In this document: positions 3,501 through 64,000 of the stretch, piece by piece
Layout of the letters: each line of letters starts with the position of its first letter
Position numbering within the stretch: position 1 is the stretch's first letter
From: Candidatus Uhrbacteria bacterium
GTDB taxonomy: Bacteria; Patescibacteriota; Patescibacteriia; UBA9934; GWF2-40-263
Length of the DNA: 64,000 nt
Assembly (NCBI GenBank): GCA_014239775.1
Contig: JAAZYG010000005.1
Location: forward strand, 6,746-70,745
Direction of reading: 5' to 3'
Translations under genes and position numbers: made by a program
The notes under the pieces: model-generated
What the model saw: the letters and a program-made list of their open reading frames with translations, nothing else
The model's database searches: none
Told to the model about the DNA's origin: nothing

Positions 3501-3572
3501 ATCATGAATATAGGAGGATAACTAAGTTCTTTAACAATTAAATATACTTAAACCACTTTTTTGGGGAAAACC

Positions 3573-5405
3573 ATGACTCTTGAACCGAGGTCATTGTCGC
3601 CAGTTAGAACCTGGGCAAGCATTAACGCGCCTCGCAACATATTACTTCTACTTGTTGGGTGCGAGCATTTAGGTGTACCTAAAAAGGTCATCTTCAATAG
3701 TTTACCTGATAGACTAAAAGGTAAATCGATATCATTAATGAGAAAAGATGAAGATCAAATTACTCTTGCAGAGTATGATGATGTTCTAAGACCTTTAATA
3801 GATCACTTAGGTCACGTGAGTCTACTGAGCGAAATTGGTCATGCATCACCAAAGATTGACTTTGGTTTTGAAACCGTCAAACGTATCGCAGGCACACTTC
3901 CTGGACTCGGTCATTTTGTTAGTCCATGGGTTGCATACAAACAACTCAATGAAGCTGCAAGAGCTTGGAATAATAACAAAATCTGGAAGGCTGATTTAAT
4001 AGATCACAACATGGTTAGGCTTATGTGTACATATAATCCTGCTAGTCCAACCGGACAAACCATCGATCGAATTAAAGACGCAGTTTCACTTTTGTATTTA
4101 ATCAGAGGGATGAATGAAGCTCTTCCAGGAATTTTTCCAGGAAGATACTTGTTGTCTGAAGTTAATTACAGACTAGTCAATCTACCACTAGAACAACTAC
4201 TGCGGACATTGTGTCCAAAAAGTAATATTGAATTTAGTGGAAATGTCTTATACTTCAACAATGAACTCGTTGCAACAAAGGTTTGGCTAAAACCAGACCA
4301 CAGAGGATGGTTCATGGGTGACTACTCACGAACTGAGATTGATGGTGTAATGACAACACCAGCAATCTTAATCTTAAAAGATGTGTGTACACAAGCGACA
4401 GGAAATGTATGTCCTGGTCAAATATTGCCACTAGTTCGTCTAGGTGAAATTTATCAAATCAACGAAGATGTGAGTCAATTTTCACACACAATACTGGACA
4501 TTCGGTGGAACACAACTTGGGCAGATAAAGTAAAAAGTTATCTACCGTTCGTTGGTGGTCATAAAAACTTCCAAAATGAGTTCATTACTGAAAACAGGGC
4601 GGTTGCAGCAACTCAACAAGTTTCGCTTGAAAAACGTAAGACTCAAATTTATACAGCACTTATTTCAGCGATTTATCCTGATAAATCAATGTTTCAATCT
4701 GTTCTTGAAGGTAAAAATCTTACAGTAATAGATGACACTACAGTGTCTTTGTTTGTTGACATTGCAAACTTCTCAAAATGGGCAAACTCCTGTGGAGCCA
4801 ATGAAGTATACAATTTTATGCAGCCCTTTATGACTGGTGTGAATAAAATTGCCTTACGTTGTCATGGTAAGCTGTGTAATTTTACCGGTGATGGATGTGC
4901 AATTAATTGGTTTGGTAAAATAGGACCCAGCAAACAATATTCAGTAAAACGAAGATTGCAATTTGCCATAGATGCATCTCTCTACATTTTGAAACTTGCA
5001 GATAATGCTGGATGTTCTGTACGTGTAGGAATTTCTGTTGGTCAAACAATCACATACACTATTCCTGTAGACAAAAGTGGTATTCAAGCAATGCCTGTCA
5101 CAAATGGAGTAGCAATGAATATGGCCGCAAGAGTGCAGGCTGCAATGAAACCAACACAACAAAAAATGAAATGTTCTGTTGCAGCAATGGATGATAGTGC
5201 AGAAAAAGTTCTTACAGCTGATGGAATCTTAAATATTGCACCATTAAACATAAGGATCATTGGTGTAGTCGAAGAAAAGTCTGATACATTTAGTTTATTC
5301 CAAATCATGCCAACAACAATGACTGAAAAGGACCAAAACTGGATCACACGGACTGGCGCAGACACGTCTATGAATATGCCCACAATCAACTCAAATGAGG
5401 ATTAA
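3573..5405 (+). CDS. class III nucleotidyl cyclase (adenylate/guanylate-cyclase-type catalytic domain) fused to an unassigned ~390-aa N-terminal domain
   Basis: C-terminal ~190 aa carries cyclase-homology-domain blocks: FVDIANFS (metal Asp), FTGDGCAINWF (second Asp), VRVGISVG and GVAMNMAARV (Asn/Arg). ATG at 3573 preferred over TTG at 3561. G+C is above the backbone (43% in the one row counted). Confidence 0.75.
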   Translation: MTLEPRSLSPVRTWASINAPRNILLLLVGCEHLGVPKKVIFNSLPDRLKGKSISLMRKDEDQITLAEYDDVLRPLIDHLGHVSLLSEIGHASPKIDFGFETVKRIAGTLPGLGHFVSPWVAYKQLNEAARAWNNNKIWKADLIDHNMVRLMCTYNPASPTGQTIDRIKDAVSLLYLIRGMNEALPGIFPGRYLLSEVNYRLVNLPLEQLLRTLCPKSNIEFSGNVLYFNNELVATKVWLKPDHRGWFMGDYSRTEIDGVMTTPAILILKDVCTQATGNVCPGQILPLVRLGEIYQINEDVSQFSHTILDIRWNTTWADKVKSYLPFVGGHKNFQNEFITENRAVAATQQVSLEKRKTQIYTALISAIYPDKSMFQSVLEGKNLTVIDDTTVSLFVDIANFSKWANSCGANEVYNFMQPFMTGVNKIALRCHGKLCNFTGDGCAINWFGKIGPSKQYSVKRRLQFAIDASLYILKLADNAGCSVRVGISVGQTITYTIPVDKSGIQAMPVTNGVAMNMAARVQAAMKPTQQKMKCSVAAMDDSAEKVLTADGILNIAPLNIRIIGVVEEKSDTFSLFQIMPTTMTEKDQNWITRTGADTSMNMPTINSNED

Positions 5406-10898: not shown

Positions 10899-11951
10899 TT
10901 ATTCTACAGGTGCAGCTACTCCGACATATAACACCGAACTGTCTTTTGGGTCAACTACTAATACCCTAGGTATTCTATTTGAAGGAAATCTTTCTGTCTT
11001 CCATGTCACACCAGCATCAGCACTTCTATAAAAAATTGAATTAGCTGCAAAGTAAATACGTTTTGGATCTATAGGATCAATTGCAAGTGCTTTTATCTTC
11101 AATTGGCCTGGTGAAGTAAGAAGTTCCAGCGGTTCCCAATTAAGACCAAAATCTTTTGATCGAAGCAATCCGTAAGTTGTTGCAGCTAGTACAACACTAG
11201 AATTTTTATTTTGTGTCATTGTAAAAACCTCTTTAGCACGCTGCAATTTTTCTATATTACTCTCTACAACCTCCCAATTCTGGCCACCATCTGTAGTTCG
11301 TCTTATACCGCTGTTAAAAGTTGATACTATGACATTACGAGTGTCTACATTGCTTATTAAAATTTCTGAAACCTCGCCACCAGATTTAAGCACAGTTTGC
11401 CACGTATCTCCCTTATCATCACTCCTTAAAACATCTCCGTTAGATAATCCTATCCAAATAGTATTACTGTTATACCAATCAATTGAAATACGATTCACTT
11501 TTACACCATCTCGTGTTTCAAGATATGTCTCTGAACTAAAAGTTCTCATACAATCTTTTGTACTGTATACCCTTGATCCTTTTGCAACATAAACATTACA
11601 AACATTTTTTGGATCAACCTTAATATCTAAAACCAAACCTTCTCTGAATGCCTTGTGACGAACCTGGCGCCATGAATTTCCTGCATCCTCACTATAAAGC
11701 ATCCCATTTTTTCGTGTAGCAATGTATGTAAAATTATTATCTTGTGGATCCATTTCCATATTTATAACATTGGTTGTAGCCAAAGTACCTATACCTTGTG
11801 CTGTTGGAACTAAAACAATCTGCCCCCATTCCTCACCAACATTAACTGTTTTAAATACACCACCATCATTAGTTTTTGGACCACTTGAGCCACCAAAACA
11901 ACCTGCTCCAGCAAGAATGATTGGCAATAAAAGTATTAAAAATCTTTTCAT
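10899..11951 (-). CDS. secreted lipoprotein with BNR/Asp-box beta-propeller repeats
   Basis: Lipobox LAGAGC. Repeated D-x-G-x-x-W boxes (DAGNSW, DKGDTW, DGGQNW, DFGLNW, DAGVTW). Confidence 0.7.
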   Translation of the reverse strand: MKRFLILLLPIILAGAGCFGGSSGPKTNDGGVFKTVNVGEEWGQIVLVPTAQGIGTLATTNVINMEMDPQDNNFTYIATRKNGMLYSEDAGNSWRQVRHKAFREGLVLDIKVDPKNVCNVYVAKGSRVYSTKDCMRTFSSETYLETRDGVKVNRISIDWYNSNTIWIGLSNGDVLRSDDKGDTWQTVLKSGGEVSEILISNVDTRNVIVSTFNSGIRRTTDGGQNWEVVESNIEKLQRAKEVFTMTQNKNSSVVLAATTYGLLRSKDFGLNWEPLELLTSPGQLKIKALAIDPIDPKRIYFAANSIFYRSADAGVTWKTERFPSNRIPRVLVVDPKDSSVLYVGVAAPVE

Positions 11952-11956
11952 ATATA

Positions 11957-12922
11957 TTAAGTTAATAAAATATTTTCAAGAATCAAATGTGTGTTTACAT
12001 TGCTTTTTGCAACAATGCGAGCACGTCTAATTTCTTGAAGTAGGTTATATAAATCAATTATTTTAAATTTATTTGTTAATTTGTTAATATCGTCTTTATT
12101 ATTTTTATAAACACACAAATCATTGCAACCAATCTTATTCAACAACACATCTCTTAACACAGACTCCCACCTATCAAGAACTTCATGTAATTTTTTATTT
12201 TTATCAGTCTCTTGCTTTGTAATAATTTCTGTAACAGATTTAAACTTACGCGCTACCGAAGATTGAAACAAATGAGATACAGAAGAAACAACTATATCTA
12301 AATTTGCACGAAAAGATCCGTCCTTAATATATGATATTGCTAAACCTGGTCTGCCAAATGCTAAATCTGAAAATAAATCTGCTTGTTTTTTTCCAATACC
12401 ACTTTTTATAAGAGAGCTACTAATAAGATCACTTGATACTGTATACAAATTAATAACCTGACAACGAGAAACTATTGTTGCAGGCAAATCACTTATTGAA
12501 GTTGCACGTAAAATTAATAATGCTTTTCCATTAGGTTCTTCTAAGGTTTTCAACAAAGCATTCGAAGCACTCACAGATAATTTATCAGCCTCCTTTATAA
12601 AACCTACTTTATAACTACTTGCAAGAGGACTCATTGCCATCTTTTTATTAAACTCACGTATCTGCTCTACTGATATGTTTTGCTTTAACTTATCTTTGTC
12701 AGAAACTGTAGGTAATCTTTTAACAATAGAAACATCTGGTAATGATTCTAGACGATTTTGTGTATTTAATACATTGCGAATCAATTGCGTAATAACAGTT
12801 GTTTTTCCAGTATTTTTAGGACCAACAAAAAGCATACTATGTGGTAACTGATCGTTTTGAACCAATCTTGTAATGATCTCTTGAGCTGTTTTGTGTCCAA
12901 TTATTCCTGAAAATACGCTCAT
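11957..12922 (-). CDS. holB: DNA polymerase III delta-prime subunit
   Basis: LPHSMLFVGPKNTGKTT P-loop-like block and IVSRCQ sensor motif. ATG at 12922 preferred over GTG at 12940. Confidence 0.8.
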   Translation of the reverse strand: MSVFSGIIGHKTAQEIITRLVQNDQLPHSMLFVGPKNTGKTTVITQLIRNVLNTQNRLESLPDVSIVKRLPTVSDKDKLKQNISVEQIREFNKKMAMSPLASSYKVGFIKEADKLSVSASNALLKTLEEPNGKALLILRATSISDLPATIVSRCQVINLYTVSSDLISSSLIKSGIGKKQADLFSDLAFGRPGLAISYIKDGSFRANLDIVVSSVSHLFQSSVARKFKSVTEIITKQETDKNKKLHEVLDRWESVLRDVLLNKIGCNDLCVYKNNKDDINKLTNKFKIIDLYNLLQEIRRARIVAKSNVNTHLILENILLT

Positions 12923-13038
12923 ACTAGCATAGTATATCACACTTTATAATCTAAAACATTCATTACTTCTTGGTTATAATACATATGTATATATTACGAT
13001 TCGATCTTATTTGTCATAAATAACCAACAATTCTAATC

Positions 13039-13072
13039 ATCTTTATTTAGCTGAACTTAGCTAAATAAAGAT
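13039..13072. promoter_or_regulatory. perfect 13-bp inverted repeat just upstream of the island promoter (operator candidate)
   Basis: ATCTTTATTTAGC (13039-13051), 8-nt spacer, GCTAAATAAAGAT (13060-13072). It ends 18 nt before the -35 hexamer. No flanking T-run, so it is not a terminator. Confidence 0.4.
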
Positions 13073-13763: not shown

Positions 13764-13826
13764 ATCTGATCTGGAATGAAGTAAATTATCAACTACTTCC
13801 TTCCAGATCAGATCCCCATGGTGGGG
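13764..13826 (+). other. long hairpin plus adjacent short GC hairpin
   Basis: 13-bp perfect ATCTGATCTGGAA / TTCCAGATCAGAT with inner GAAGTA / TACTTC, then CCCCA-TGG-TGGGG (13814-13826). Confidence 0.75.
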
Positions 13827-13887
13827 CTTTGAAAAGGACAGCACTGTGCAAATAAGCACAACACCATCTCAGAAAAGGAGAATTTTA

Positions 13888-15123
13888 ATGCTGCAAAACA
13901 TTTTTGAACCCCCCACCCTCATGGGAATGCAATTTTGTATTCCTGAAAACGACTCGCGTCCGGGCCTGCCGGGCAAGATCGAGGTTCTAGGTCGCAAGGC
14001 CCAGAAGTACTTCACAGGAAAGATAAACTTCCAAGAAAGCCATTTCAACAAAGGTGTTGCCGTCAGTCTGTGCATTCAGGCTGGTCAGGACTGGACCAAG
14101 TTGGGAAGCATTTCTGCGCTGAAAAAGCGTGGTAATGAGCTCCGGCTGATCTCTGAAGCCAGCGTGATTGCTGCTTCTACTGGTCTTCCGGTTGAATGGC
14201 TCGTTAAAGGAACTGAGTCTGTCGAAGGACTGCGAATGATCAAAAAGGCGGTTGAACTCGCTCGAAAGGTCAATCGTAATCACATGTTCTGGAGCAGTGT
14301 AATGACTCCCAGTCAAGTGATTGACCAGGAAATGAACGTCCTTTTGGCTCTGGAAGATGCCCTTATCACCGCACTCAAGACTAACCCCAAGAGTGATGAT
14401 GAGAAGGAAGATCTCAAGCAGAGTACAACGACTGTTGATCTGCGTGACATGGATATGGAGGCTTTCATCGAAGGTCTAGTTCCTGTACCTTCAGAACTTC
14501 CGAAGTTGCCTAGTACCAGGTCTGAATCCGACACCAAAGTCAAGGCAAAAACCTGTACTGACAACAATTGTGTGATCGTGAAGCGGATTGAACTGCATGA
14601 ACCTGGAACCTTGGTGGTTATTAATAACGAACTTCGTTATGTTTGCTGCGGCAAGCATGGCAAATGCCGTTCTTTGATGACACCTGAGGTCGCAAGAGTG
14701 ACTGCAGATGAAAGTAGGCTTCGACGTCAGTACCGGATCCCTGCTTGGAAGCAGATTGTGACTGAAGACTTTCAGTCTGATCGCCACACGGTCTACTGTC
14801 CGAGTTGTTCAAAATTCATCCTCAAGGATGGGTCAAAGACACTCGCACAATGGATCACTTCTGCTGAAGAGACTGAGAGAGATCTTTCTCGAAATGGTAG
14901 GCAAATCGCACGTAGCTTGGGATACAACAATCCCTTGAACAACGACGCCTACCTTGAGCTGGCATTGGCAGAGCCAGGACTGCGTGCTAACGGAATCGTT
15001 GGCCCCAATAAGACCCGAAAAGGTCCAATGGGAATTCGCGCAGCCTTGGCAATCTCCAAGACCAACCCGAATCGTCGTAACGGCAAAAACCGTAGCAACA
15101 ATCGGAATGCTCAACGCTCCTAA
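13888..15123 (+). CDS. orphan 411-aa protein: unassigned N-domain, acidic linker, Cys-rich zinc-ribbon-like region, Arg/Asn/Lys-rich C-terminal tail
   Basis: RBS AAGGAG (13875-13880) sits 7 nt before ATG 13888 (the track starts at GTG 13846). Cysteine clusters CTDNNC ... CCGKHGKC ... CPSC. Tail KTRKGPMG...NPNRRNGKNRSNNRNAQRS. Counted rows are 47-55% G+C versus 32-37% in flanking genes. The many antisense ORFs are typical of GC-rich coding DNA. Confidence 0.7.
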   Translation: MLQNIFEPPTLMGMQFCIPENDSRPGLPGKIEVLGRKAQKYFTGKINFQESHFNKGVAVSLCIQAGQDWTKLGSISALKKRGNELRLISEASVIAASTGLPVEWLVKGTESVEGLRMIKKAVELARKVNRNHMFWSSVMTPSQVIDQEMNVLLALEDALITALKTNPKSDDEKEDLKQSTTTVDLRDMDMEAFIEGLVPVPSELPKLPSTRSESDTKVKAKTCTDNNCVIVKRIELHEPGTLVVINNELRYVCCGKHGKCRSLMTPEVARVTADESRLRRQYRIPAWKQIVTEDFQSDRHTVYCPSCSKFILKDGSKTLAQWITSAEETERDLSRNGRQIARSLGYNNPLNNDAYLELALAEPGLRANGIVGPNKTRKGPMGIRAALAISKTNPNRRNGKNRSNNRNAQRS

Positions 15124-25397: not shown

Positions 25398-26005
25398 ACC
25401 TTTGTCATTTTATCTATCATTACAATTTTGTCAGAATTTAATATCTCAAGCAAAAATTTATCAGCCATTTGCCTTCTATCCAAAAATTCATCTTTTGGCA
25501 TTAAAGTATAATTTATCTCATAAGGAACCTCGAACTCGAATTTGTTAATAATTTTTTCTAAAATAGACTGCTTAATATCGCCAACTATTAATATATCCGT
25601 AGGAACAGATGGACTATCAACAAAACGACCTGTGAACACCATATAATGTATACTGCCTTTTTCATTAATCTCCTGTACAAGATTTTGTTTTAATAATATT
25701 TGAATCTTTTGAAATAATGAACGTAGATCGCTATATAATATAAAATCCGTATTTACCTGATAATACTTCTTTTTATCAGCAAGTGCCGTTGTTTTTTTGA
25801 TGTTCTTTACATGTTTTTCCCTAATTAGGCCCATTTCTAATAAATTCTTCAATTCACGTCTTACAGAATTAAGCTGTGCATCTATTTTTCTGGTAAGTTG
25901 TCTAACATAAAAAGCCTCCTGCGAGCACTGCAAGAACAAACTCATCAAACGAGCACGTGTCTTTGAACCAAACATCTGCTCAAGTTTAAAATTATTTTTT
26001 GTCAT
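25394..26005 (-). CDS. winged-helix transcriptional regulator-like protein
   Basis: FGSKTRARLMSLFL ... FYVRQLTRKIDAQLNSVRRELKNLLEMGLI (ArsR/MarR-like wHTH). ATG at 26005 preferred. Confidence 0.55.
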   Translation of the reverse strand: MTKNNFKLEQMFGSKTRARLMSLFLQCSQEAFYVRQLTRKIDAQLNSVRRELKNLLEMGLIREKHVKNIKKTTALADKKKYYQVNTDFILYSDLRSLFQKIQILLKQNLVQEINEKGSIHYMVFTGRFVDSPSVPTDILIVGDIKQSILEKIINKFEFEVPYEINYTLMPKDEFLDRRQMADKFLLEILNSDKIVMIDKMTKV

Positions 26006-26039
26006 AAATCCTATTGCACACAATGATTATCCAGGTATA

Positions 26040-28274
26040 ATGTACACAAAGCTACAAAAGAGATCAAATTTTATGAATCCAACACTACAGGCAGCAAACT
26101 ATCAACCCTCCAGTCCTCAGGAAAAAATAGATGGAATATCTCTATTACTACCAGTAAAATCACGTAATGGTTTTGTGTTTTTAGTAGCAAATATCAAAAA
26201 AAGATCAACAGATTCAGAATTACTTCTACAGTTTTTAAATGATCAAATACACAGATTGGCAGATTCTTTTGGAAAAGAAGCAAATGCACAACATAGATTT
26301 GAACAATTTCTTGGTGCATTAAATGAAAACATCTCACAACAAGTCAGAGATGGTAAATGGAAAGTACAAATAGATGAATTTGATGCAATGATTGGAATAG
26401 CCTGTGAAACACAAATGTATTTATCTGGCACAGGTGAATTGACCGCACTTTTTCTTCATAAGAAACCCTCTCAAAGATATCAAATATTTAATTTATTTAG
26501 AGGGATACAAACAGAACAAAATCTACCAACCTGGGAAAAGACATTTGCTGTAATACTGGACGGTGACCTGCATGGTGGTGATGTGTTTTGTATATCAAAT
26601 AAAAATCTTCAACAAGAGATCCAAAACGAAGAACTTAATAGTATTTTAACAACACTTCCACCAAAAGGTGCGGCAGAAAAAATAAGACAGTACTTTTCAG
26701 AAAAAGAAAATGTTCTTATTCTTATTATAAAATCTGAAACAGATAAATCTGTAGAAAAAAATAAACAAGCAAAAATCTTATCTGACGTATCAATTGACAA
26801 ATTAACCAAATCTGAAGAAAAAACCACAGAGCTATTATCAGAAAAAAAACCAAAAATTGGCAAAATTATTATTTGGATACTAGAAAAAATATTTAGCAAA
26901 CAACCAGCATCAAGAATATTGAAGGATCTTAGAAAAGGTGAATCAAAATGGAAAATTGCGCTACACGCAACACAAATATTAGGACGAACTGGTATTAAAT
27001 ACACTAAAAATATATCCAAAAAAACTCTTAAAAAAGGAGGTCAACTAGCAAAAAAAGAAAACAGAAAAGTTGCTATAAATAAAGTCATGAAAGAAGGCTC
27101 TAATATATCTAATCGAATATTTAATCTAAAAAATAAATTATTTGGTTTACCAAAATCAACAAAATACTTAACAATTGGAGTAATTATAATTGTAATAACA
27201 TTAGCTTTTAGTGTATCCCTTCTATCAAAAGCTCAAGTAAAAAATAAAGAACAAAAAGCTTATGATGATGCACTTAATAAAGTTGAAGATGTTATAGAAA
27301 GAGCGGCTGGTGCAATTATTTATAAAGATGAAAATCAGGCAAGAACACTCTACATTAACGCTCTTAGCCTTATTGATAAGCTGCCAAGCGATTCAGTAGA
27401 GCGTAGTAAAAAAATAAGTGATCTAAAAATTGATATAAGAAATGCCACAGATGAAATTCGACACATGGTTACAATACCAAATCCAGCACTGATAACAGAT
27501 CTTGCATTACTAAACGACGGCTTGTTTGTAAATTCATTCACAAATCTAGAAAAAGAATTATACGTACACGCATCAGATGGTAAATTATATAAATTTAATA
27601 GAACACAAAAGTTATTCAAAGCAGTAAGTCTAAAATTAGAAAAAATAGATACACAAATTATATCATCATCATCTAACAATAATTTTGTATATGCAATAGA
27701 TGAAAATGGAGACATGTATTCACATGATATAGAATCCTTGGCTCAAGAAAAAATAAACCTTGAAACAATTATAAAAGGTACTGATATTGTAGCCTATGCA
27801 AATAGACTTTATTTACTTAGTCCAGCAGAAAATGAAGAAGGACAAATTTATCGATATTCTGCATCTGGCTCAATTTTTAGTAAACCACAACCATGGATTA
27901 AGGCCAAAACAACAAACCTAAATAATGCAACATCCTTAGCTATAGATGGAACAATATTTGTTCTAAAGAAAAGTGGTCAAATTATAAGATACATAAGCGG
28001 AAGCGAAGTTGGTTGGAGTGCCGGAATCGTTGATCCACCAATTACAAGTGCGACTAACATATGGACTGACACCGAGAGTAATTATGTGTATGTAATGGAA
28101 CCTTCAACAAAACGTATTATTATTTTTGAAAAGGAGACAGGAAATTTCGTTGTTCAATATAAATCAACTGCTTTTTCTGAAATGGTGAATTTTGTAGTGG
28201 ATGAATCAAATTATACAATTTATATCATGTCTGGATCTAAGTTATACTCAATAGCAGCGAGTCACCTTAAATAA
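26040..28274 (+). CDS. large hypothetical membrane protein (cytoplasmic N-domain, Lys-rich linker, one TM, repeat-rich C-domain)
   Basis: 744-aa ORF with backbone-like AT-rich codons. TM helix YLTIGVIIIVITLAFSVSLLS. The C-terminal ~340 aa has a beta-rich periodic pattern. No family recognised. Confidence 0.55.
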   Translation: MYTKLQKRSNFMNPTLQAANYQPSSPQEKIDGISLLLPVKSRNGFVFLVANIKKRSTDSELLLQFLNDQIHRLADSFGKEANAQHRFEQFLGALNENISQQVRDGKWKVQIDEFDAMIGIACETQMYLSGTGELTALFLHKKPSQRYQIFNLFRGIQTEQNLPTWEKTFAVILDGDLHGGDVFCISNKNLQQEIQNEELNSILTTLPPKGAAEKIRQYFSEKENVLILIIKSETDKSVEKNKQAKILSDVSIDKLTKSEEKTTELLSEKKPKIGKIIIWILEKIFSKQPASRILKDLRKGESKWKIALHATQILGRTGIKYTKNISKKTLKKGGQLAKKENRKVAINKVMKEGSNISNRIFNLKNKLFGLPKSTKYLTIGVIIIVITLAFSVSLLSKAQVKNKEQKAYDDALNKVEDVIERAAGAIIYKDENQARTLYINALSLIDKLPSDSVERSKKISDLKIDIRNATDEIRHMVTIPNPALITDLALLNDGLFVNSFTNLEKELYVHASDGKLYKFNRTQKLFKAVSLKLEKIDTQIISSSSNNNFVYAIDENGDMYSHDIESLAQEKINLETIIKGTDIVAYANRLYLLSPAENEEGQIYRYSASGSIFSKPQPWIKAKTTNLNNATSLAIDGTIFVLKKSGQIIRYISGSEVGWSAGIVDPPITSATNIWTDTESNYVYVMEPSTKRIIIFEKETGNFVVQYKSTAFSEMVNFVVDESNYTIYIMSGSKLYSIAASHLK

Positions 28275-39759: not shown

Positions 39760-39846
39760 ATGTGTTAACGAATTTTATCACACTTACATATACACCAAAT
39801 TATTAAGTACACACTTAGTATATACAGTGTTATCCACACTGATATA

Positions 39847-39892
39847 TTGCGTTCGTTTTTTGTTCGGTCTATAATACGAACATAATACGAAC
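39847..39892 (+). promoter_or_regulatory. lexA promoter candidate overlapped by nested inverted repeats (candidate LexA operator)
   Basis: TTGCGT, 17 nt, TATAAT (39870-39875). GTTCG-6-GTTCG-10-CGAAC-6-CGAAC at 39851-39892, symmetric around the -10 hexamer. Confidence 0.5.
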
Positions 39893-39902
39893 ACATAAAC
39901 AT

Positions 39903-40517
39903 ATGCCTTATCTAACAAAGAAACAGACAGAGATACTTCGATACATAAAATCTCATCTGCAAGACAATGGATACGCTCCTTCCTACAGAGAAATCGGTGA
40001 GTATTTTGGTCTTTCTTCCCCAGCCACAATACACTCACACATTCAAACACTTGTTGAAAAAGGAGAAATTCAAATAGGTGAAGAAGGAGAGGCTAGATCA
40101 ATAGAATTGGTTCAATCAGAGCCATTTGCAATGGCTGTAATGCTTCCAATGGCAGGGCTTATTACCGCTGGAACACCAATAGAAGCTGTTGAACAAAATG
40201 AAGCGATGGCTGTACCTGCACAATTTGTAGTAGATGGAGCAAATTCCTATGTCCTACAAGTAAAAGGCAGGTCCATGATTGAAGATGGGATATTAGATGG
40301 AGATTTTGTTGTAATAGAAAGAAACCCATCTCCAAAAAATGGAGAAGTTGTTGTGGCATTATTAGATAATGCATACGCAACACTCAAACGATTCTACAGA
40401 GAAAAAAACCAAATTAGATTACAACCAGCAAATAGCTCAATGGATCCAATCTATGTACAAGATTGCATAATACAAGGAGTTGTACGTGCTGTAATAAGAA
40501 AATTTCAACCTGTGTAG
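39903..40517 (+). CDS. lexA: LexA repressor
   Basis: N-terminal wHTH (PSYREIGEYFGLSSPATIHSHIQTL), AG cleavage region, and S24 peptidase blocks VKGRSMIEDGI ... ATLKRF. Confidence 0.9.
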   Translation: MPYLTKKQTEILRYIKSHLQDNGYAPSYREIGEYFGLSSPATIHSHIQTLVEKGEIQIGEEGEARSIELVQSEPFAMAVMLPMAGLITAGTPIEAVEQNEAMAVPAQFVVDGANSYVLQVKGRSMIEDGILDGDFVVIERNPSPKNGEVVVALLDNAYATLKRFYREKNQIRLQPANSSMDPIYVQDCIIQGVVRAVIRKFQPV

Positions 40518-41038: not shown

Positions 41039-41065
41039 ACAAATAAACCTAGACTAAAAGCATTT

Positions 41066-42271
41066 ATGAATAAAATTATCATGCACATTGATATGAATGC
41101 ATATTTTGCATCAGTAGAACAACAAGCTAATCCTTTTTTAAGAAATAAACCAATTGGTATTATTGGTAAAAATGAAAAAAGGTCCGTAATATCAGCAGCA
41201 TCATATCAAGCCAAACAACTTGGTGTTAAAACAGCAATGTCTACTTGGCAAGCAAAAAACATTTGCCCATCAATAATCTTATATCCGGGAGATCCTGATA
41301 AATATAAATACGTAATGAATAAATTTAATAATATCTTTAGTGAGTTTACAGATAAAATAGAGATATTTAGCATTGATGAAAGTTTTTTAGATATTACAGA
41401 TACTGCAGAAGATTATTTTGGGGCAATATTCCTAGCACAAACAATCAGAGAGCGCCTAAAAGAAGAATTAGGTGATTACATAACAGCATCTATAGGAATA
41501 AGCTCAAATAAACTAATGTCAAAATTATCATCAGAAAAAGTTAAACCAAATGGAATAACAGTTACAAGACCAAAAAATATAAAAAAAGTACTATTTAGCT
41601 CTGAACTTGAAGATTTGTGTGGATTAGGTAAAAACACAAAGCATAAATTAAATGAAATGGGTATATATAATTTTGAACAACTTAGCAAAACACCACTTTG
41701 GACCTTAAAAAAAGAATTTAAAAGCAAAGGATTATGGCTTTATAATTCCTCAAATGGAATAAAAAATGATGCTGATATAGAACCTGAAAATAATTCTGAA
41801 CAAAAATCAATAAGTAACACCAACACAATGCAGATAGATACACTTGATGAAAAAATATTAAAACAAAATTTATCTAAATTATCTGAAAAAACTGCATACA
41901 AATTAAGATCTATCAATGCAACATCTAAAACTCTAGTGCTAAAAATTAGGTTTGATGATTTTTCTAATTTTACACATCAAATAACCCTAAACAAAGGGAC
42001 TAATGATGGAATTATTATATTTAAAAATACATGGAACATGCTTTCTAAAAAAATAAATAATTCAAAAAAAATACGCCAAATAGGCATATCTGCAAAATCT
42101 CTACTTACGGGACAATGCCAACAATCAATATTTAAAAAGGATAGAAAAAATGAATCCGCACTTAATGCACTAGACAGTCTTCAAAAAAAATATGGAAAAA
42201 ACACATGGAAACGTGCATTAATTAATTCTACACAACTAAGTACAGTATCTAGTGGTTTCTATCATAAATAA
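41066..42271 (+). CDS. dinB: DNA polymerase IV (Y-family)
   Basis: IMHIDMNAYFASVEQ and FSIDESFLDIT (catalytic Asp/Glu). Little-finger-length C-terminus. Confidence 0.9.
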   Translation: MNKIIMHIDMNAYFASVEQQANPFLRNKPIGIIGKNEKRSVISAASYQAKQLGVKTAMSTWQAKNICPSIILYPGDPDKYKYVMNKFNNIFSEFTDKIEIFSIDESFLDITDTAEDYFGAIFLAQTIRERLKEELGDYITASIGISSNKLMSKLSSEKVKPNGITVTRPKNIKKVLFSSELEDLCGLGKNTKHKLNEMGIYNFEQLSKTPLWTLKKEFKSKGLWLYNSSNGIKNDADIEPENNSEQKSISNTNTMQIDTLDEKILKQNLSKLSEKTAYKLRSINATSKTLVLKIRFDDFSNFTHQITLNKGTNDGIIIFKNTWNMLSKKINNSKKIRQIGISAKSLLTGQCQQSIFKKDRKNESALNALDSLQKKYGKNTWKRALINSTQLSTVSSGFYHK

Positions 42272-61388: not shown

Positions 61389-62453
61389 ATGGATCTACAA
61401 AAACAAATCGAAAATTATCAAAATAAAGTAAAGGAGCTTGAATCTAAACTTACAGATGCAAGCGTTCTTTCTGATACAAAAAAATTAAGGGAAATTACCG
61501 CAGAATACAATAATGGAAAAATAATTTTAGAAATCGGTAACAGATACACAAAGACAGTGTCGGATCTTAAAAGTGCAGAATCTGCCCTTGCTGAAACAAT
61601 GGATGAGGAAATGAAGGAACTGGCACATGAAGAAATAAATGAATTAAGTACAAACTTACCCATAATAGAGAAAGAGCTACTTCTTGCACTTATACCAGCA
61701 GATCCAATGGATAAGAAAAATATTATTATAGAAATTCGTGCAGGTGCCGGTGGAGATGAGGCTTCGTTGTTCGCAGGAGAACTAATGAGAATGTACACAC
61801 GTTATGCTGAAGTTAATAATTGGAAGACAGAGCTTATTTCAGCAAACAGAAACGAAATAGGAGGTTTTAAAGAAACAAGCTTTTCAATTAAAGGAAGTAA
61901 CGTGTTTAGTAAACTAAAGTATGAAAGTGGTGTACACAGAGTGCAGCGTGTACCTGAAACCGAAAAACAAGGACGAGTACATACATCAACAGCAACTGTG
62001 GCAGTATTACCAGAAGCAGAAGAGGTAGATGTAAAAATAAGCCCTGGTGATCTAAAAATTGAGGCAACAACATCCACTGGAGCAGGTGGTCAAAGTGTAA
62101 ACACAACATACTCAGCCGTAAGAATAACCCATTTACCAACAGGTCTTATGGTGTACTGCCAAGAAGAACGATCTCAAAAACAAAACAAAGAAAGAGCGTT
62201 ATCAATAATACGTGCACGTGTATATGCGATGGAACAAGAAAAAGCTCAAAAAGAAAGAGCAGATGCAAGACGTGGTCAGATAGGAACAGGTGATAGATCA
62301 GAAAAAATAAGAACTTATAATTTTCCACAAGACAGAATCACAGACCACAGAATCAAACAAAACTTTCATGACATTCCATCTGTCATGGATGGTGGTATGG
62401 ATACGATAATTAAATCCATGAAAGAAGCTGAATTAGTTAAACAATTATCTTAA
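61389..62453 (+). CDS. prfA: peptide chain release factor 1
   Basis: GGQ motif (GAGGQSVNTT). RF1-type tripeptide region RVPETEKQGRVHTS (PxT, x=E). Confidence 0.9.
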   Translation: MDLQKQIENYQNKVKELESKLTDASVLSDTKKLREITAEYNNGKIILEIGNRYTKTVSDLKSAESALAETMDEEMKELAHEEINELSTNLPIIEKELLLALIPADPMDKKNIIIEIRAGAGGDEASLFAGELMRMYTRYAEVNNWKTELISANRNEIGGFKETSFSIKGSNVFSKLKYESGVHRVQRVPETEKQGRVHTSTATVAVLPEAEEVDVKISPGDLKIEATTSTGAGGQSVNTTYSAVRITHLPTGLMVYCQEERSQKQNKERALSIIRARVYAMEQEKAQKERADARRGQIGTGDRSEKIRTYNFPQDRITDHRIKQNFHDIPSVMDGGMDTIIKSMKEAELVKQLS

Positions 62454-62475
62454 ATACTCAATATATAATCATTGA

Positions 62476-62507
62476 CAAAAAACCATACAAACTGTATGGT
62501 TTTTTTA
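62476..62507 (+). terminator. intrinsic terminator of prfA
   Basis: AAAAAACCATACA, loop AAC, TGTATGGTTTTTTT. Confidence 0.8.
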
Positions 62508-62538
62508 CTCCTAGTAATACTTAATACTAGAAGCTTTT

Positions 62539-62687
62539 GCCTGAGTGAGGGTTGTATTATTAGCCTGGAACAATTAACACACCTCCCTCCTTCTATGCAT
62601 GCTCGTATGAACATGTGTAGTGTTAAATGTTTTAATGATACAACCCTCGCTAGGCCTTTAAAGAATCTGACAAGGTTCTTTTTTTTT
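62539..62687 (+). ncRNA. candidate ~150-180-nt structured small RNA ending in an intrinsic terminator
   Basis: 11-bp helix GAGGGTTGTAT (62547-62557) / ATACAACCCTC (62638-62648), extended by GCC/GGC. Inner helix TTAACAC (62574-62580) / GTGTTAA (62620-62626). Unpaired CCTCCCTCCTT (62582-62592). Terminator AAGAATC / GGTTCTT plus a T-run (62661-62687). The overlapping ORFs on both strands look spurious. Confidence 0.35.
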
Positions 62688-62764
62688 AAAGTTATGCACA
62701 AATTTAGTGTACACATCTGTGGACAACCTAAAGAAAATAACAAAAATCCAAGTAATATGTACTG

Positions 62765-62793
62765 TTGACATGTATGTATGATACTGATATTCT
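62765..62793 (+). promoter_or_regulatory. sigma70-like promoter candidate with extended -10
   Basis: TTGACA (62765-62770), 17 nt, TATTCT (62788-62793), preceded by TGa. Confidence 0.45.
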
Positions 62794-62799
62794 AGTTTT

Positions 62800-64000
62800 T
62801 ACCCAGTCGTGAAATAAACAACCAACCTACAATGCCTTGGCAAAGTAATTAGGGAGTAAATTAATCGACAGTTAGAAGATAATCAAAATATTTAATGTGC
62901 TCGCTTGCGGGTCATAAAATAAAAATTTTCTTCTAATGGTAGATACGGTTATTTAAAATGATCAACTAAAACCACAATTTAAGGATTGGTTTAACAACTT
63001 TCATCCATAAATTGAAAAGTATTTTCGTCATTAAATGTTTGTGTGCGATCTCAGGATTACATCCAACGATCTGTGGCATAATGAAAATACGGTAAGTCAT
63101 TGAGATTTTTAAATAATTGAATCAAAATCAACTGAAGGTTTAGGTATGAAGCTTGTTGCTTTCTAGGATTGATAAACAACTCACGAAGTTTTTCTCCCCT
63201 ACAGCACAGCCATTGCCACTAGATTGTAAAGTACTCTGAATGGTTCCATGGAATCACAAAGACCGCTTCAACAGCTAGTTAGTTATTAGTAATCAAAACT
63301 CTTAGGCAACTAGGAGACTACTGAAACTGAATCCACGGACGTTTAAAGGTCACCATACCCTCAAACAACCAATGATTTAGCGGAACTATTAATTTGAATA
63401 CTAATGACTTTGAGTGGACCATGGTGGAACACTTTAAACTGAAAGTTGATTTGTGAAATTGGTGGCAACACTTATTTCACACGTTCCTCCTATGTAAACT
63501 TTAGCAATTAAGAATCAATCTGAATTGAGTATTATCCATTTTCAACATCTGGAAACATACAAAAGACAGATAGGTAAATTGATTTGCTTTGCACACATCA
63601 GTGGCAACACTTGATAATACAACGCTTTTTAAGCAGTATGTGCATATAAAAGTTTGCGGGTTTTCAAACAACTGAAGAGTTTGTGTGGAAATGACATGAA
63701 ATACTGTCACTTCCCTAGATTACGCATTCGCGTTTTGTCATCATTGCAACTTGAGTGTCACAACAAAAGTAGCAAGACTGCACAAAGTAAAAAATGAGCA
63801 ATCAAGAAAACACAAGCTTAACAGTGAGAGGATGGATTTCACTCCTGAATCTCGTGTGATGAAAAAATGAAGGCAGTTGGATGAAGATCTGATAGTAAAG
63901 AATTTATTCTAGGATAAATCCTAACTAACAGATCTGATTCCTCTGCTGACATTGGAACAACTCTTAGAGCTCTCAGCTTGCTGTGAGCTCTTTTTCTTTT
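62800..64000 (+). ncRNA. ~1.2-kb ORF-free transcription unit (candidate long noncoding RNA, or decayed/unknown region)
   Basis: No plus-strand ORF of 60 aa or more, and only one junk-like minus ORF. Bounded by a promoter candidate and a terminator. Two hairpins display the same GTGGCAACAC loop (63463-63472, 63601-63610), with a complementary TTGCCACT at 63213-63220. Confidence 0.3.
63966..64000 (+). terminator. intrinsic terminator at the window edge
   Basis: AGAGCTC-T-CAG, loop CTTG, CTG-T-GAGCTCT, followed by TTTTCTTTT. Confidence 0.65.

Follow-up and report, generated by a model that had tools for sequence, protein, structure and literature searches.

A candidate 1.2-kb structured non-coding RNA gene with a putative DnaA box, lying between prfA and prmC in Uhrbacteria-like Patescibacteria

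To our knowledge, only a handful of bacterial non-coding RNAs (ncRNAs) longer than 500 nt have been described besides rRNA, RNase P, tmRNA and introns, and each of the earlier large RNAs (OLE, GOLLD, ROOL, raiA) opened structural and functional work. OLE RNA (~600 nt, Firmicutes), for which no catalytic function has been shown and which is thought to act as a ribonucleoprotein (RNP) scaffold, is a stand-alone chromosomal large structured ncRNA with many conserved helices and a patchy, lineage-restricted distribution. Promoters regulated by DnaA are known in Escherichia coli (dnaA, nrdAB, mioC), the known examples driving protein genes; we know of none dedicated to a kilobase-sized ncRNA, nor of a DnaA-box promoter as a feature of OLE. 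The large, ornate RNAs GOLLD and ROOL assemble into multimeric cages made of RNA only (PMC12286853). They typically occur in phages or prophages, next to tRNA genes. Here we describe a region of about 1.2 kb in a 64,000-nt stretch of a Candidatus Uhrbacteria bacterium (contig JAAZYG010000005.1; hereafter the window, meaning the whole stretch analysed, in whose positions all coordinates are given). The region under study, ~62692-64000, lies between prfA, which encodes a release factor, and prmC, the gene of the corresponding methylase; it very probably holds a gene for a large structured ncRNA of a new family.

Taken as a whole, the region is best explained as a single, independently transcribed structured RNA gene of ~1.2 kb belonging to an undescribed family, a reading that computation makes quite probable. 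The RNA matches no known RNA family and would, on the computational evidence, constitute a new class. A comparison with Rfam had been proposed in an initial annotation of the DNA, and it returned no family match in the region: across the whole window, Rfam 15 (4227 families) at gathering thresholds found only tRNAs and an L10 leader elsewhere, and at E≤10 the stretch 62400-64000 gave sub-threshold chance matches (SECIS_1, miRNA, snoRNA), the best of which, SECIS_1, reached 25.4 bits against a threshold of 35, owing to a tandem G.A motif in the 3' hairpin. Nine homologous or neighbouring loci from relatives likewise yielded no relevant match at E≤1. Contigs of relatives carry the labels L001 and L081-L099; those of the RF1 homologues were fetched after a homology search with the RF1 protein. 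The families covered without a match include OLE, GOLLD, ROOL, raiA, HEARO, 6S, RNase P, SRP, tmRNA, rRNAs, group I/II introns and riboswitches. A tRNA with an intron or a tmRNA was rejected, ARAGORN finding 0 such genes in window 62400-64000 and in L082, L083, L089, L090, L094 and L097. Comparison by blastn with phages (50,697 records) and plasmids revealed no similarity, and one viral pattern match was discarded as a single chance match in coding DNA. A full-text literature search found no described large ncRNA in Patescibacteria, Parcubacteria or Uhrbacteria.

The locus nevertheless recalls these systems in general build. Like OLE, it appears to be a stand-alone chromosomal RNA gene with many conserved helices and a patchy distribution in one lineage; unlike OLE, it leaves the OLE covariance model unmatched, has no linked oapA-type partner genes, belongs to a different phylum, is twice as long and diverges far faster in sequence. 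With GOLLD and ROOL it shares the size class above 500 nt, the dense helices with GNRA-type loops and the variable peripheral elements, whereas no model match, phage or prophage DNA, or neighbouring tRNA gene accompanies it, and it occupies a fixed chromosomal site between house-keeping genes. The resemblance to OLE, GOLLD and ROOL is therefore descriptive, a matter of size and dense helices, with no homology. Telomerase-RNA-type scaffolds offer an analogy of function only: they too have short conserved end or core motifs and a fast-changing, length-variable, hairpin-rich body, and their homologues are recognised by synteny and architecture, not by sequence, but they are eukaryotic and have a known protein partner and a template function. 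The elements that we recognise are the following.

62692-62700, + strand: auxiliary DnaA-box-like site, TTATGCACA, fitting TTATNCACA
62718-62726, - strand: putative DnaA box, TGTGGACAA on the + strand, one mismatch, 38 nt upstream of the -35 hexamer
62765-62793, + strand: predicted sigma-70-type promoter, TTGACA (62765-62770), 17 nt, TATTCT (62788-62793), with an extended -10 TG
62800-63998, + strand: probable large structured ncRNA, ~1.2 kb, its start at ~62800 (+/-3) placed from the -10 hexamer and its end in the terminator U-tract
62806-62869, + strand: predicted 5' domain, helix GUCG (62806-62809)/CGAC (62866-62869) around GC-CUUG-GC (62834-62841)
63241-63256, + strand: predicted hairpin UGGUUC-CAUG-GAAUCA (helix 22), containing the palindrome TTCCATGGAA
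63299-63316, + strand: predicted hairpin CUCUUAG-GCAA-CUAGGAG with a GNRA tetraloop (helix 24)
63454-63481, + strand: predicted hairpin GUGAAAU-UG-GUG-GCAA-CAC-UU-AUUUCAC
63483-63487 with 63954-63958, + strand: predicted long-range helix 29, GUUCC/GGAAC
63597-63615, + strand: weakly supported second GUG-GCAA-CAC hairpin, AUCAGUGGCAACACUUGAU
63866-63958, + strand: predicted 3' domain, comprising a long irregular hairpin and, after it, the 3' motif CCUCU...CAUUGGAAC
63966-64000, + strand: predicted intrinsic terminator, 7+3-bp stem, CUUG loop, U-tract running 1-2 nt past the window

The region is non-coding. Its largest open reading frame (ORF) within 62792-64000 has 69 amino acids (aa), and under tables 4 and 25, where TGA is not a stop, open frames there still do not exceed 113 codons, in line with the earlier statement that the 1.2 kb carry no credible ORF; an alternative genetic code with UGA as an amino acid was rejected, the frames remaining closed. 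With 1209 nt, this is the longest stretch of the window lacking a stop-free frame of at least 110 codons, the next measuring 836 nt. Between the window and its relative L082, mismatches are spread evenly over the three codon positions in the RNA region (161/159/159) as against 93/30/12 in the adjacent prfA, and the indels (1, 2, 5, 10, 12... nt) do not keep to multiples of 3. An independent pair of relatives, L089 and L090, is likewise devoid of periodicity (58/49/44). No family emerged from a Pfam search of the six-frame translations of the region at E≤1, and the lone ORF kept between the window and L081 (47 aa, 63654-63797) is disrupted in L082 by 1-nt indels. Open frame, protein similarity and third-position substitution bias, the marks of a protein gene or pseudogene, are thus all missing. 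The locus is at present annotated as blank or with spurious ORFs that overlap the RNA, of 90 aa in L081 and 134 aa in L094, including minus-strand calls in L083 and L094.

At its upstream end, the unit has the promoter candidate with TG that the initial annotation had noted; it matches the consensus at 10 of 12 hexamer positions. Promoter-like sites in general show no excess here (9 found versus 11.2 expected), and what raises this one above chance is that its hexamers and spacing are conserved in 7 species. The strong terminator claimed for the downstream end is also present: the stretch 63966-63991 reads AGAGCTC-T-CAG CTTG CTG-T-GAGCTCT and is followed by TTTTCTTTT, a structure that a simple terminator scanner missed because of the stem mismatch and the window edge. 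In L081 and L082 the stem is identical, the loop changes from CUUG to UUUA and the T-run continues beyond the position of the window end; equivalent terminators precede prmC by 30-50 nt in L083, L089 and L094. Extending the view to the right, as had been advised, was possible through the near-identical contig L081, where the terminator T-run goes on and prmC starts ~30 nt past the right end of the window. The unit thus ends at its terminator, contrary to the suggestion that it might be the tail of an element continuing past the window.

We also note that prmC begins ~30 nt after the terminator U-tract without a visible Shine-Dalgarno sequence (L081 2806-2836), and that a TATAAT/TATACT-like hexamer stands 4-5 nt before its ATG (in L082, TATAATATACATG), so that its mRNA is possibly leaderless or its expression dependent on read-through.

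The unit is conserved in position and architecture among relatives; a lack of conservation was one of the refuting conditions named in the initial annotation. An exact look-up of the window's RF1 retrieved no record, and the homology search returned RF1 proteins 95%, 90%, 75%, 74%... identical to that of the window. L081 is 98% identical to the window over 62400-64000, and L082 (RF1 90%) aligns with it end to end, its genes being 81-94% identical, the RNA interior only 38-59% and the last 150 nt 71-88%. Seven related loci carry the unit directly upstream of prmC (L081, L082, L097, L083, L088/L090, L089 and L094), and three relatives do not. In L097, L083, L088/L085/L090, L089 and L094, which belong to more distant and G+C-richer genomes (L088/L085/L090 being one species, and L091 the same contig as L085), it occupies a gene-free 0.9-1.7 kb with a common layout: the box TGTGGATAA, the promoter TTGACA-17-TAnTCT, usually GUUACC, and an intrinsic terminator 30-50 nt before prmC. 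Total RNA length ranges from ~890 to ~1670 nt among members, and a 1137-nt gap in a contig record that comes without DNA may represent a further unit. A scan of metagenomes for the pattern of DnaA box, promoter and 5' end retrieved 3 contigs, two of them new (L089, L090), and missed L081, which implies that the collection is incomplete for this clade; a GTDB scan with prfA gave a nearest match 62% identical, on a contig ending 125 nt after prfA. As far as seen, the family appears confined to a clade of Uhrbacteria-like Patescibacteria.

The minimum free energy z-scores of the + strand against dinucleotide shuffles are -7.6 for the window and -8.3, -8.3, -6.8 and -6.0 for four homologues. The hexamers most over-represented over seven RNAs are CUUCGG (19 observed versus 1.3 expected) and GGCAAC (17 versus 3.0), which correspond to the well-known tetraloops C(UUCG)G and G(GCAA)C. 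They are strand-specific: GCAA outnumbers its complement TTGC by 14:1, 25:3, 11:2 and 16:1 in four G+C-rich homologues, and hairpins capped by GNRA or UNCG number 29 on the + strand versus 6 on the - strand, with CUUG-capped hairpins also present in the 5' hairpin and the terminator. On this sequence evidence, the + strand is the functional one. RNAalifold, applied to the window, L081 and L082, predicts 346 pairs with 91% of cells paired; 58 of the 346 pairs are changed on both sides, compared with 20.7 +/- 3.7 in column shuffles (0 of 500 reaching 58) and with 5-13 in slid-partner controls. In the second clade (L089/L090), compensatory change affects 17 of 68 predicted pairs, and UUCG and GCAA loops replace one another in homologous hairpins. 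Even the few differences between the window and L081 (n=22) include loop changes that stay within the tetraloop class (GCAA to GAAA, GCAA to GUAA). Under these structure models, the helices are under selection for pairing. The region is therefore non-coding and conserved, with compensatory changes in two clades, although the sequences are few and the structures come from the same alignments.

Individual helices illustrate this. The hairpin 63241-63256 becomes AAAUCU-UUCG-GGGUUU in L082, its 6 pairs undergoing 3 double and 3 single compensatory changes; it houses one of the two palindromes reported initially (63245-63254, TTCCATGGAA), and the other (63418-63425) is present as well. The hairpin 63299-63316 becomes CUCUCGG-GCAA-CCGAGAG in L082 through two double changes and a G.U-to-A-U change; its U.G pair is valid only on the + strand, and its loop turns from GCAA to GAAA in L081. 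In the hairpin 63454-63481, the segment GTGGCAACACTTATT is identical (15/15) in L082, where the outer stem shows, by eye, a compensatory change from GAAAU/AUUUC to GGAAU/AUUCC. The hairpin 63597-63615 is not conserved in L082, and its loop changes from GCAA to GUAA in L081, still GNRA. These last two hairpins had been described as presenting the same loop, GUGGCAACAC; the sequences are there, but they form the tops of 3-bp stems closed by GCAA tetraloops and are not themselves loops. Their exact 12-nt repeat (GTGGCAACACTT) is real and is not significant alone, since 114 of 1000 dinucleotide shuffles give a repeat as long or longer. The complementary TTGCCACT at 63213-63220 is likewise present; it is unconserved, and the pairing proposed for it finds no comparative support. 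The predicted long-range helix 29, of 5 pairs, reads AUUCC/GGAAU in L082, with one double change from G-C to A-U.

The two ends of the RNA are its most constant parts, and the middle is modular and fast-changing, with many short helices. In the 5' domain, a conserved UUACC precedes the helix and AAAGUAA follows the GC-CUUG-GC hairpin. MAFFT aligns this domain across species in a structurally wrong way, so that cross-clade statements on structure rely on manual inspection. By eye, covarying stems occupy the same places in L088/L090 (GCGAGA/UCUCGC, GGC-CUUG-GCC) and L097 (CGAGUG/CACUCG, GGG-CUUG-CCC), and the 5' helix of L094 is CAGAUG/CGUCUG. The 3' hairpin is built from the pairings AAUG/CAUU, GGCAG/CUGCU and GGA/UCC and a symmetric UGA/GAU tandem G.A loop, beyond which lie AGAUCUG/CAGAUCU and a distal AUUUAUU-CUAG-GAUAAAU hairpin. 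The AGATCTG/CAGATCT helix at 63885-63935, already seen in the initial annotation, is real and almost invariant; in helices 42-43 of this domain 97-98% of cells are paired, almost invariant between the window and L082. The basal helices covary, by eye, with those of L083 and L089 (GGCAG/CUGCU versus GGAGG/CCUCC; GGA/UCC versus GGUG/CACC), and the motif CCUC(C/U)-N5-8-UUGGA occurs in 5 of 5 full-length homologues. Among recurrent motifs, UGGAAC/GGUGGAAC stands out, UGGAAC being observed 10 times over the family versus 2.5 expected.

Three minor observations concern repeated motifs. A GGUGG(C)AACACUU hairpin-flank motif occurs three times in the window (63423-63434, 63460-63473 and 63599-63612), CCACCUCGGUGGAAC is found twice exactly in L089 (6134-6148 and 6523-6537), and UGGAAC, four-fold over-represented, also lies within the conserved 3' UUGGAAC and could be a protein-binding or tertiary-contact motif.

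Among the possibilities listed initially, that of a large structured ncRNA is supported by the conserved units, non-coding substitutions, folding z-scores, strand-specific tetraloops and compensatory changes. A cluster of small RNAs is unlikely because each of the seven loci has a single conserved promoter and a single terminator, and because long-range 5'-3' helices are predicted.

Several points nevertheless weigh against reading the region as a conserved structured RNA. The covariation counts are too high, the structure having been predicted from the three sequences on which it was scored, and independent sequences are few, effectively two per clade. In the window/L082 structure, roughly 9% of cells do not pair, and a number of the predicted helices, 9, 23 and 31 among them, are disrupted in L082. 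RNA bodies of different clades have no similarity detectable by nhmmer, so that cross-clade homology is argued from synteny, promoter architecture and short end motifs, and a catalytic or tightly packed RNA would not usually diverge as fast as is observed here (38-59% identity versus 81-94% in flanking genes). The RNA is missing from this locus in three relatives: in L092 the gap between prfA and prmC is 199 nt, and in L095/L096 and L099 prmC follows an NTP-transferase gene by ~40 nt. There, the RNA must be dispensable or have moved elsewhere. No partner protein gene is linked to it, and the DnaA box discussed below was identified by consensus match.

This box reads TGTGGATAA in all six other species, with a family consensus (A)TCTGTGGATAAC, and TGTGGA(T/C)AA is found in 7 of 7 species. 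Its distance from the -35 hexamer is 38 nt in four of them (the window, L082, L083, L097), 48 nt in two (L090, L089) and 16 nt in one (L094). These spacings (16/38/48 nt) differ by roughly one and two helical turns, so that a consensus box stands in fixed phase with the promoter in all seven species. The auxiliary site is TTATACACA in L081 and L082, and a second, inverted DnaA box occupies its position in L094, L090 and L097. At each locus the boxes number one or two and lie upstream of the promoter, with none inside the 1.2-kb RNA; over the whole window, boxes with at most one mismatch show no excess (30 found versus 26.4 expected). Helically phased spacing is expected for a factor facing RNA polymerase, not for an origin, and extra boxes and unwinding repeats are absent, for which reasons we infer that the box is a putative DnaA operator of the RNA promoter. 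The consensus box CTGTGGATAAC, identical to the flanked R1 box of the E. coli oriC, keeps a constant helical phase relative to the predicted sigma-70 promoter downstream of it, as in DnaA-regulated promoters.

We propose that the unit consists of one or two putative DnaA boxes that keep to one helical face; a sigma-70 promoter close to consensus and carrying an extended -10; a 5' domain, conserved among members (UUACC, helix P1 and a CUUG-capped hairpin); a fast-evolving modular middle of short helices capped by GNRA, UUCG or CUUG; and a conserved 3' domain (the tandem G.A hairpin and CCUCY...UUGGA) closed by a strong terminator ~30 nt before prmC. The RNA would be made as a stable, compact fold acting in trans, and not by coding or simple antisense pairing. 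Binding of DnaA may couple its synthesis to replication or growth state, and transcription passing the terminator probably feeds prmC too, since no separate promoter is obvious for that gene. By analogy with OLE, ROOL and GOLLD, the RNA might serve as scaffold of an RNP or of an RNA-only assembly, a possibility that we advance tentatively. Given its constant position among ribosomal-protein genes, with prfA and prmC on either side, a role in translation termination or ribosome biology is conceivable; the full proposal, that of a kilobase-sized class of functional RNA which would form the core of an unknown RNP or be self-assembling or catalytic, wired to DnaA and acting in that process, is doubtful at this stage.

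Among the rival explanations, the one that survives best, though improbable, makes the region a giant structured 5' leader or attenuator of prmC, with the DnaA-box promoter being that of prmC and no function in trans. It would account for the RNA always lying immediately upstream of prmC on the same strand, 30-50 nt separating terminator and start codon, and for the spacer showing no convincing separate promoter or Shine-Dalgarno sequence, and in relatives lacking the RNA prmC directly follows prfA or the NTP-transferase gene. On the other hand, no known leader comes near 0.9-1.7 kb, the terminator is strong and constitutive-looking with no evident anti-terminator pairing, dozens of helices and stable tetraloops are maintained far from it, and the same house-keeping methyltransferase needs no such control in the relatives without the RNA.

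It is quite improbable that the RNA acts as a protein-titrating sponge of the CsrB/RsmZ/CrcZ type, its GCAA loops and GGUGGAAC flanks binding many copies of one protein. Short hairpin motifs do recur, the window having two copies of GTGGCAACACTT besides GGTGGAACACTT and L089 two exact copies of CCACCTCGGTGGAAC, and TGGAAC (10 versus 2.5 expected) and GGCAAC (17 versus 3.0) are in excess; the fast sequence turnover and the variable number of hairpins also resemble those of sponge RNAs. However, the enriched motifs are the generic hyper-stable tetraloops of any large folded RNA plus UGGAAC, GGA in loops is not specifically enriched in the k-mer ranking, the motifs are neither regularly spaced nor in tandem units, the 12-nt repeat is not significant, no gene for a candidate binding protein is linked, and known sponges measure 100-450 nt.

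A mobile or defence-related non-coding array, such as a TIGR stem-loop guide array, an intron devoid of ORFs or the terminal non-coding part of an integrated element, is very unlikely. TIGR stem-loop arrays, made of variable tandem hairpins, do occur in bacteria of the Candidate Phyla Radiation (CPR) (PMC12045711). Presence or absence at one locus among relatives, and a 12+11-nt direct repeat flanking the unit in L083, would also fit such an origin. Yet genes for Nop/Tas proteins, transposases, integrases or reverse transcriptases are absent within +/-10 kb at every locus, no group I/II intron model and no phage or plasmid sequence matches, and the chromosomal position is always the same. The TIGR-Tas guide array in particular was rejected since a Nop/Tas gene is not nearby (no Nop-domain Tas gene within +/-10 kb in L083, L092, L094, L099 or among the window's neighbours, and no Nop match at E≤0.1 among its unknown proteins) and since dual-spacer units are absent: TIGR-Tas units have two 8-12-nt spacers and box C/D motifs, whereas the RNA has plain 4-8-bp stems with tetraloops and no tandem periodicity.

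That the region belongs to a chromosomal replication origin or a DnaA-titration locus, the RNA being mere spacer DNA, is highly unlikely. The DnaA box is conserved in seven loci, gene orientation flips from - to + near 61 kb and the cumulative GC skew flattens there. Nevertheless, no locus has more than two boxes, every one of them upstream of the promoter, in a window with 30 boxes versus 26.4 expected; no AT-rich unwinding element with repeats is seen, dnaA and dnaN are not nearby, and GC skew at the region simply follows gene strand. In relatives, moreover, the genes to the right are back on the - strand, which speaks against a global strand switch. An oriC was rejected accordingly, no box cluster, unwinding element or GC-skew switch having been found.

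Finally, a decayed protein gene, as also suggested initially, or random spacer left by gene loss is scarcely credible, since the AT-rich, ORF-free, quickly diverging interior and its absence from some relatives are outweighed by the lack of any protein-family remnant in six frames at E≤1, of codon periodicity and of frame-preserving indels, by an equally ORF-free region kept in position, with its promoter, 5' and 3' domains and terminator, across species whose prfA is only 68-75% identical, by tetraloop enrichment and compensatory changes that reflect selection on RNA structure, and by a compact genome that would not retain 1-1.7 kb of junk in at least 7 species.

The preferred reading of a large structured RNA gene carries several implications. 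Patescibacteria have genomes of ~1 Mb with hardly any spare DNA, and a conserved RNA gene of 0.9-1.7 kb is therefore a large investment, one suggesting that in these episymbionts the RNA performs a task for which proteins do not serve. With its conservation and helical phasing, the putative DnaA box provides a concrete hypothesis linking replication state to RNA output, and the dense tetraloop-capped architecture would make the RNA an attractive target for cryo-electron microscopy (cryo-EM).

The surroundings of the locus are those of a compact genome. The window has a G+C content of 34% and is gene-dense, stop-free frames of at least 110 codons leaving only nine gaps of at least 250 nt, and its proteins have their nearest relatives in Candidatus Uhrbacteria and other Patescibacteria. 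The genes on the left side of the RNA region are those for S2, EF-Ts, an M20 peptidase and QueA on the - strand, followed by those for L31 and RF1 (prfA) on the + strand; across loci, the neighbours are queA, rpmE, prfA, prmC, a DUF3048 gene and rplY. The window holds no second copy of the RNA.

Directly 3' of prfA, a perfect 13-bp palindromic hairpin (62477-62505, AAAAAACCATACA AAC TGTATGGTTTTTT) lies between an A-run and a T-run; it resembles a bidirectional terminator and is kept in L082 and L097. Between this prfA terminator and the promoter of the large RNA, a stretch of ~150 nt (62538-62690) is a candidate small ncRNA, with counterparts in L081 (1334-1498), L082 (~1500-1662) and L097 (1186-1362). 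It has a long closing stem (GCCTGAGTGAGGGTTGTAT/ATACAACCCTCGCTAGGC), its own terminator (62662-62690) and a conserved unpaired C/U-rich stretch, ACACCUCCCUCCUUCUAUG, that is anti-Shine-Dalgarno-like; 7 of its 42 pairs are compensatory, and it has no Rfam match. In L083 (12855-13010) and L092 (5075-5260), a different, rod-like small RNA may fill this position. Five contigs (L001, L084, L086, L087 and L093) end 0-170 nt after prfA, where the small and large RNA genes begin, which may reflect strain-level hypervariability, coverage anomalies or simply short contigs.

In L083, a gene for an FG-GAP-repeat lipoprotein (Pfam FG-GAP_3; 11800-12855, +) lies between the NTP-transferase gene and the RNA, where the stored gene calls are two spurious - strand ORFs; a short version of it exists in L088/L090 (L090 ~148-326). 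The direct repeat TTTTCTTATTGG(G)CTGGCTTTGA (12+11 nt, 13017-13040 and 14108-14131), found in L083 only, surrounds the whole unit, DnaA box, promoter, RNA and terminator included, and could be a local duplication or an insertion scar; target-site duplication was rejected as an explanation, the other loci being without such repeats.

Elsewhere in the window, three + strand ORFs without a Pfam family at E≤1e-5 stand amid a - strand region, at 3552-5402 (617 aa), 13780-15120 (447 aa) and 25911-28271 (787 aa), where local GC skew is near zero. Lastly, a perfect TTATCCACA lies inside the palindrome CAGTGTTATCCACACTG (39826-39842), immediately upstream of lexA (39843-40514), itself followed by a gene for a DinB/IMS-type polymerase (41039-42268); this palindrome is a candidate LexA operator of the lineage, or a DnaA box.

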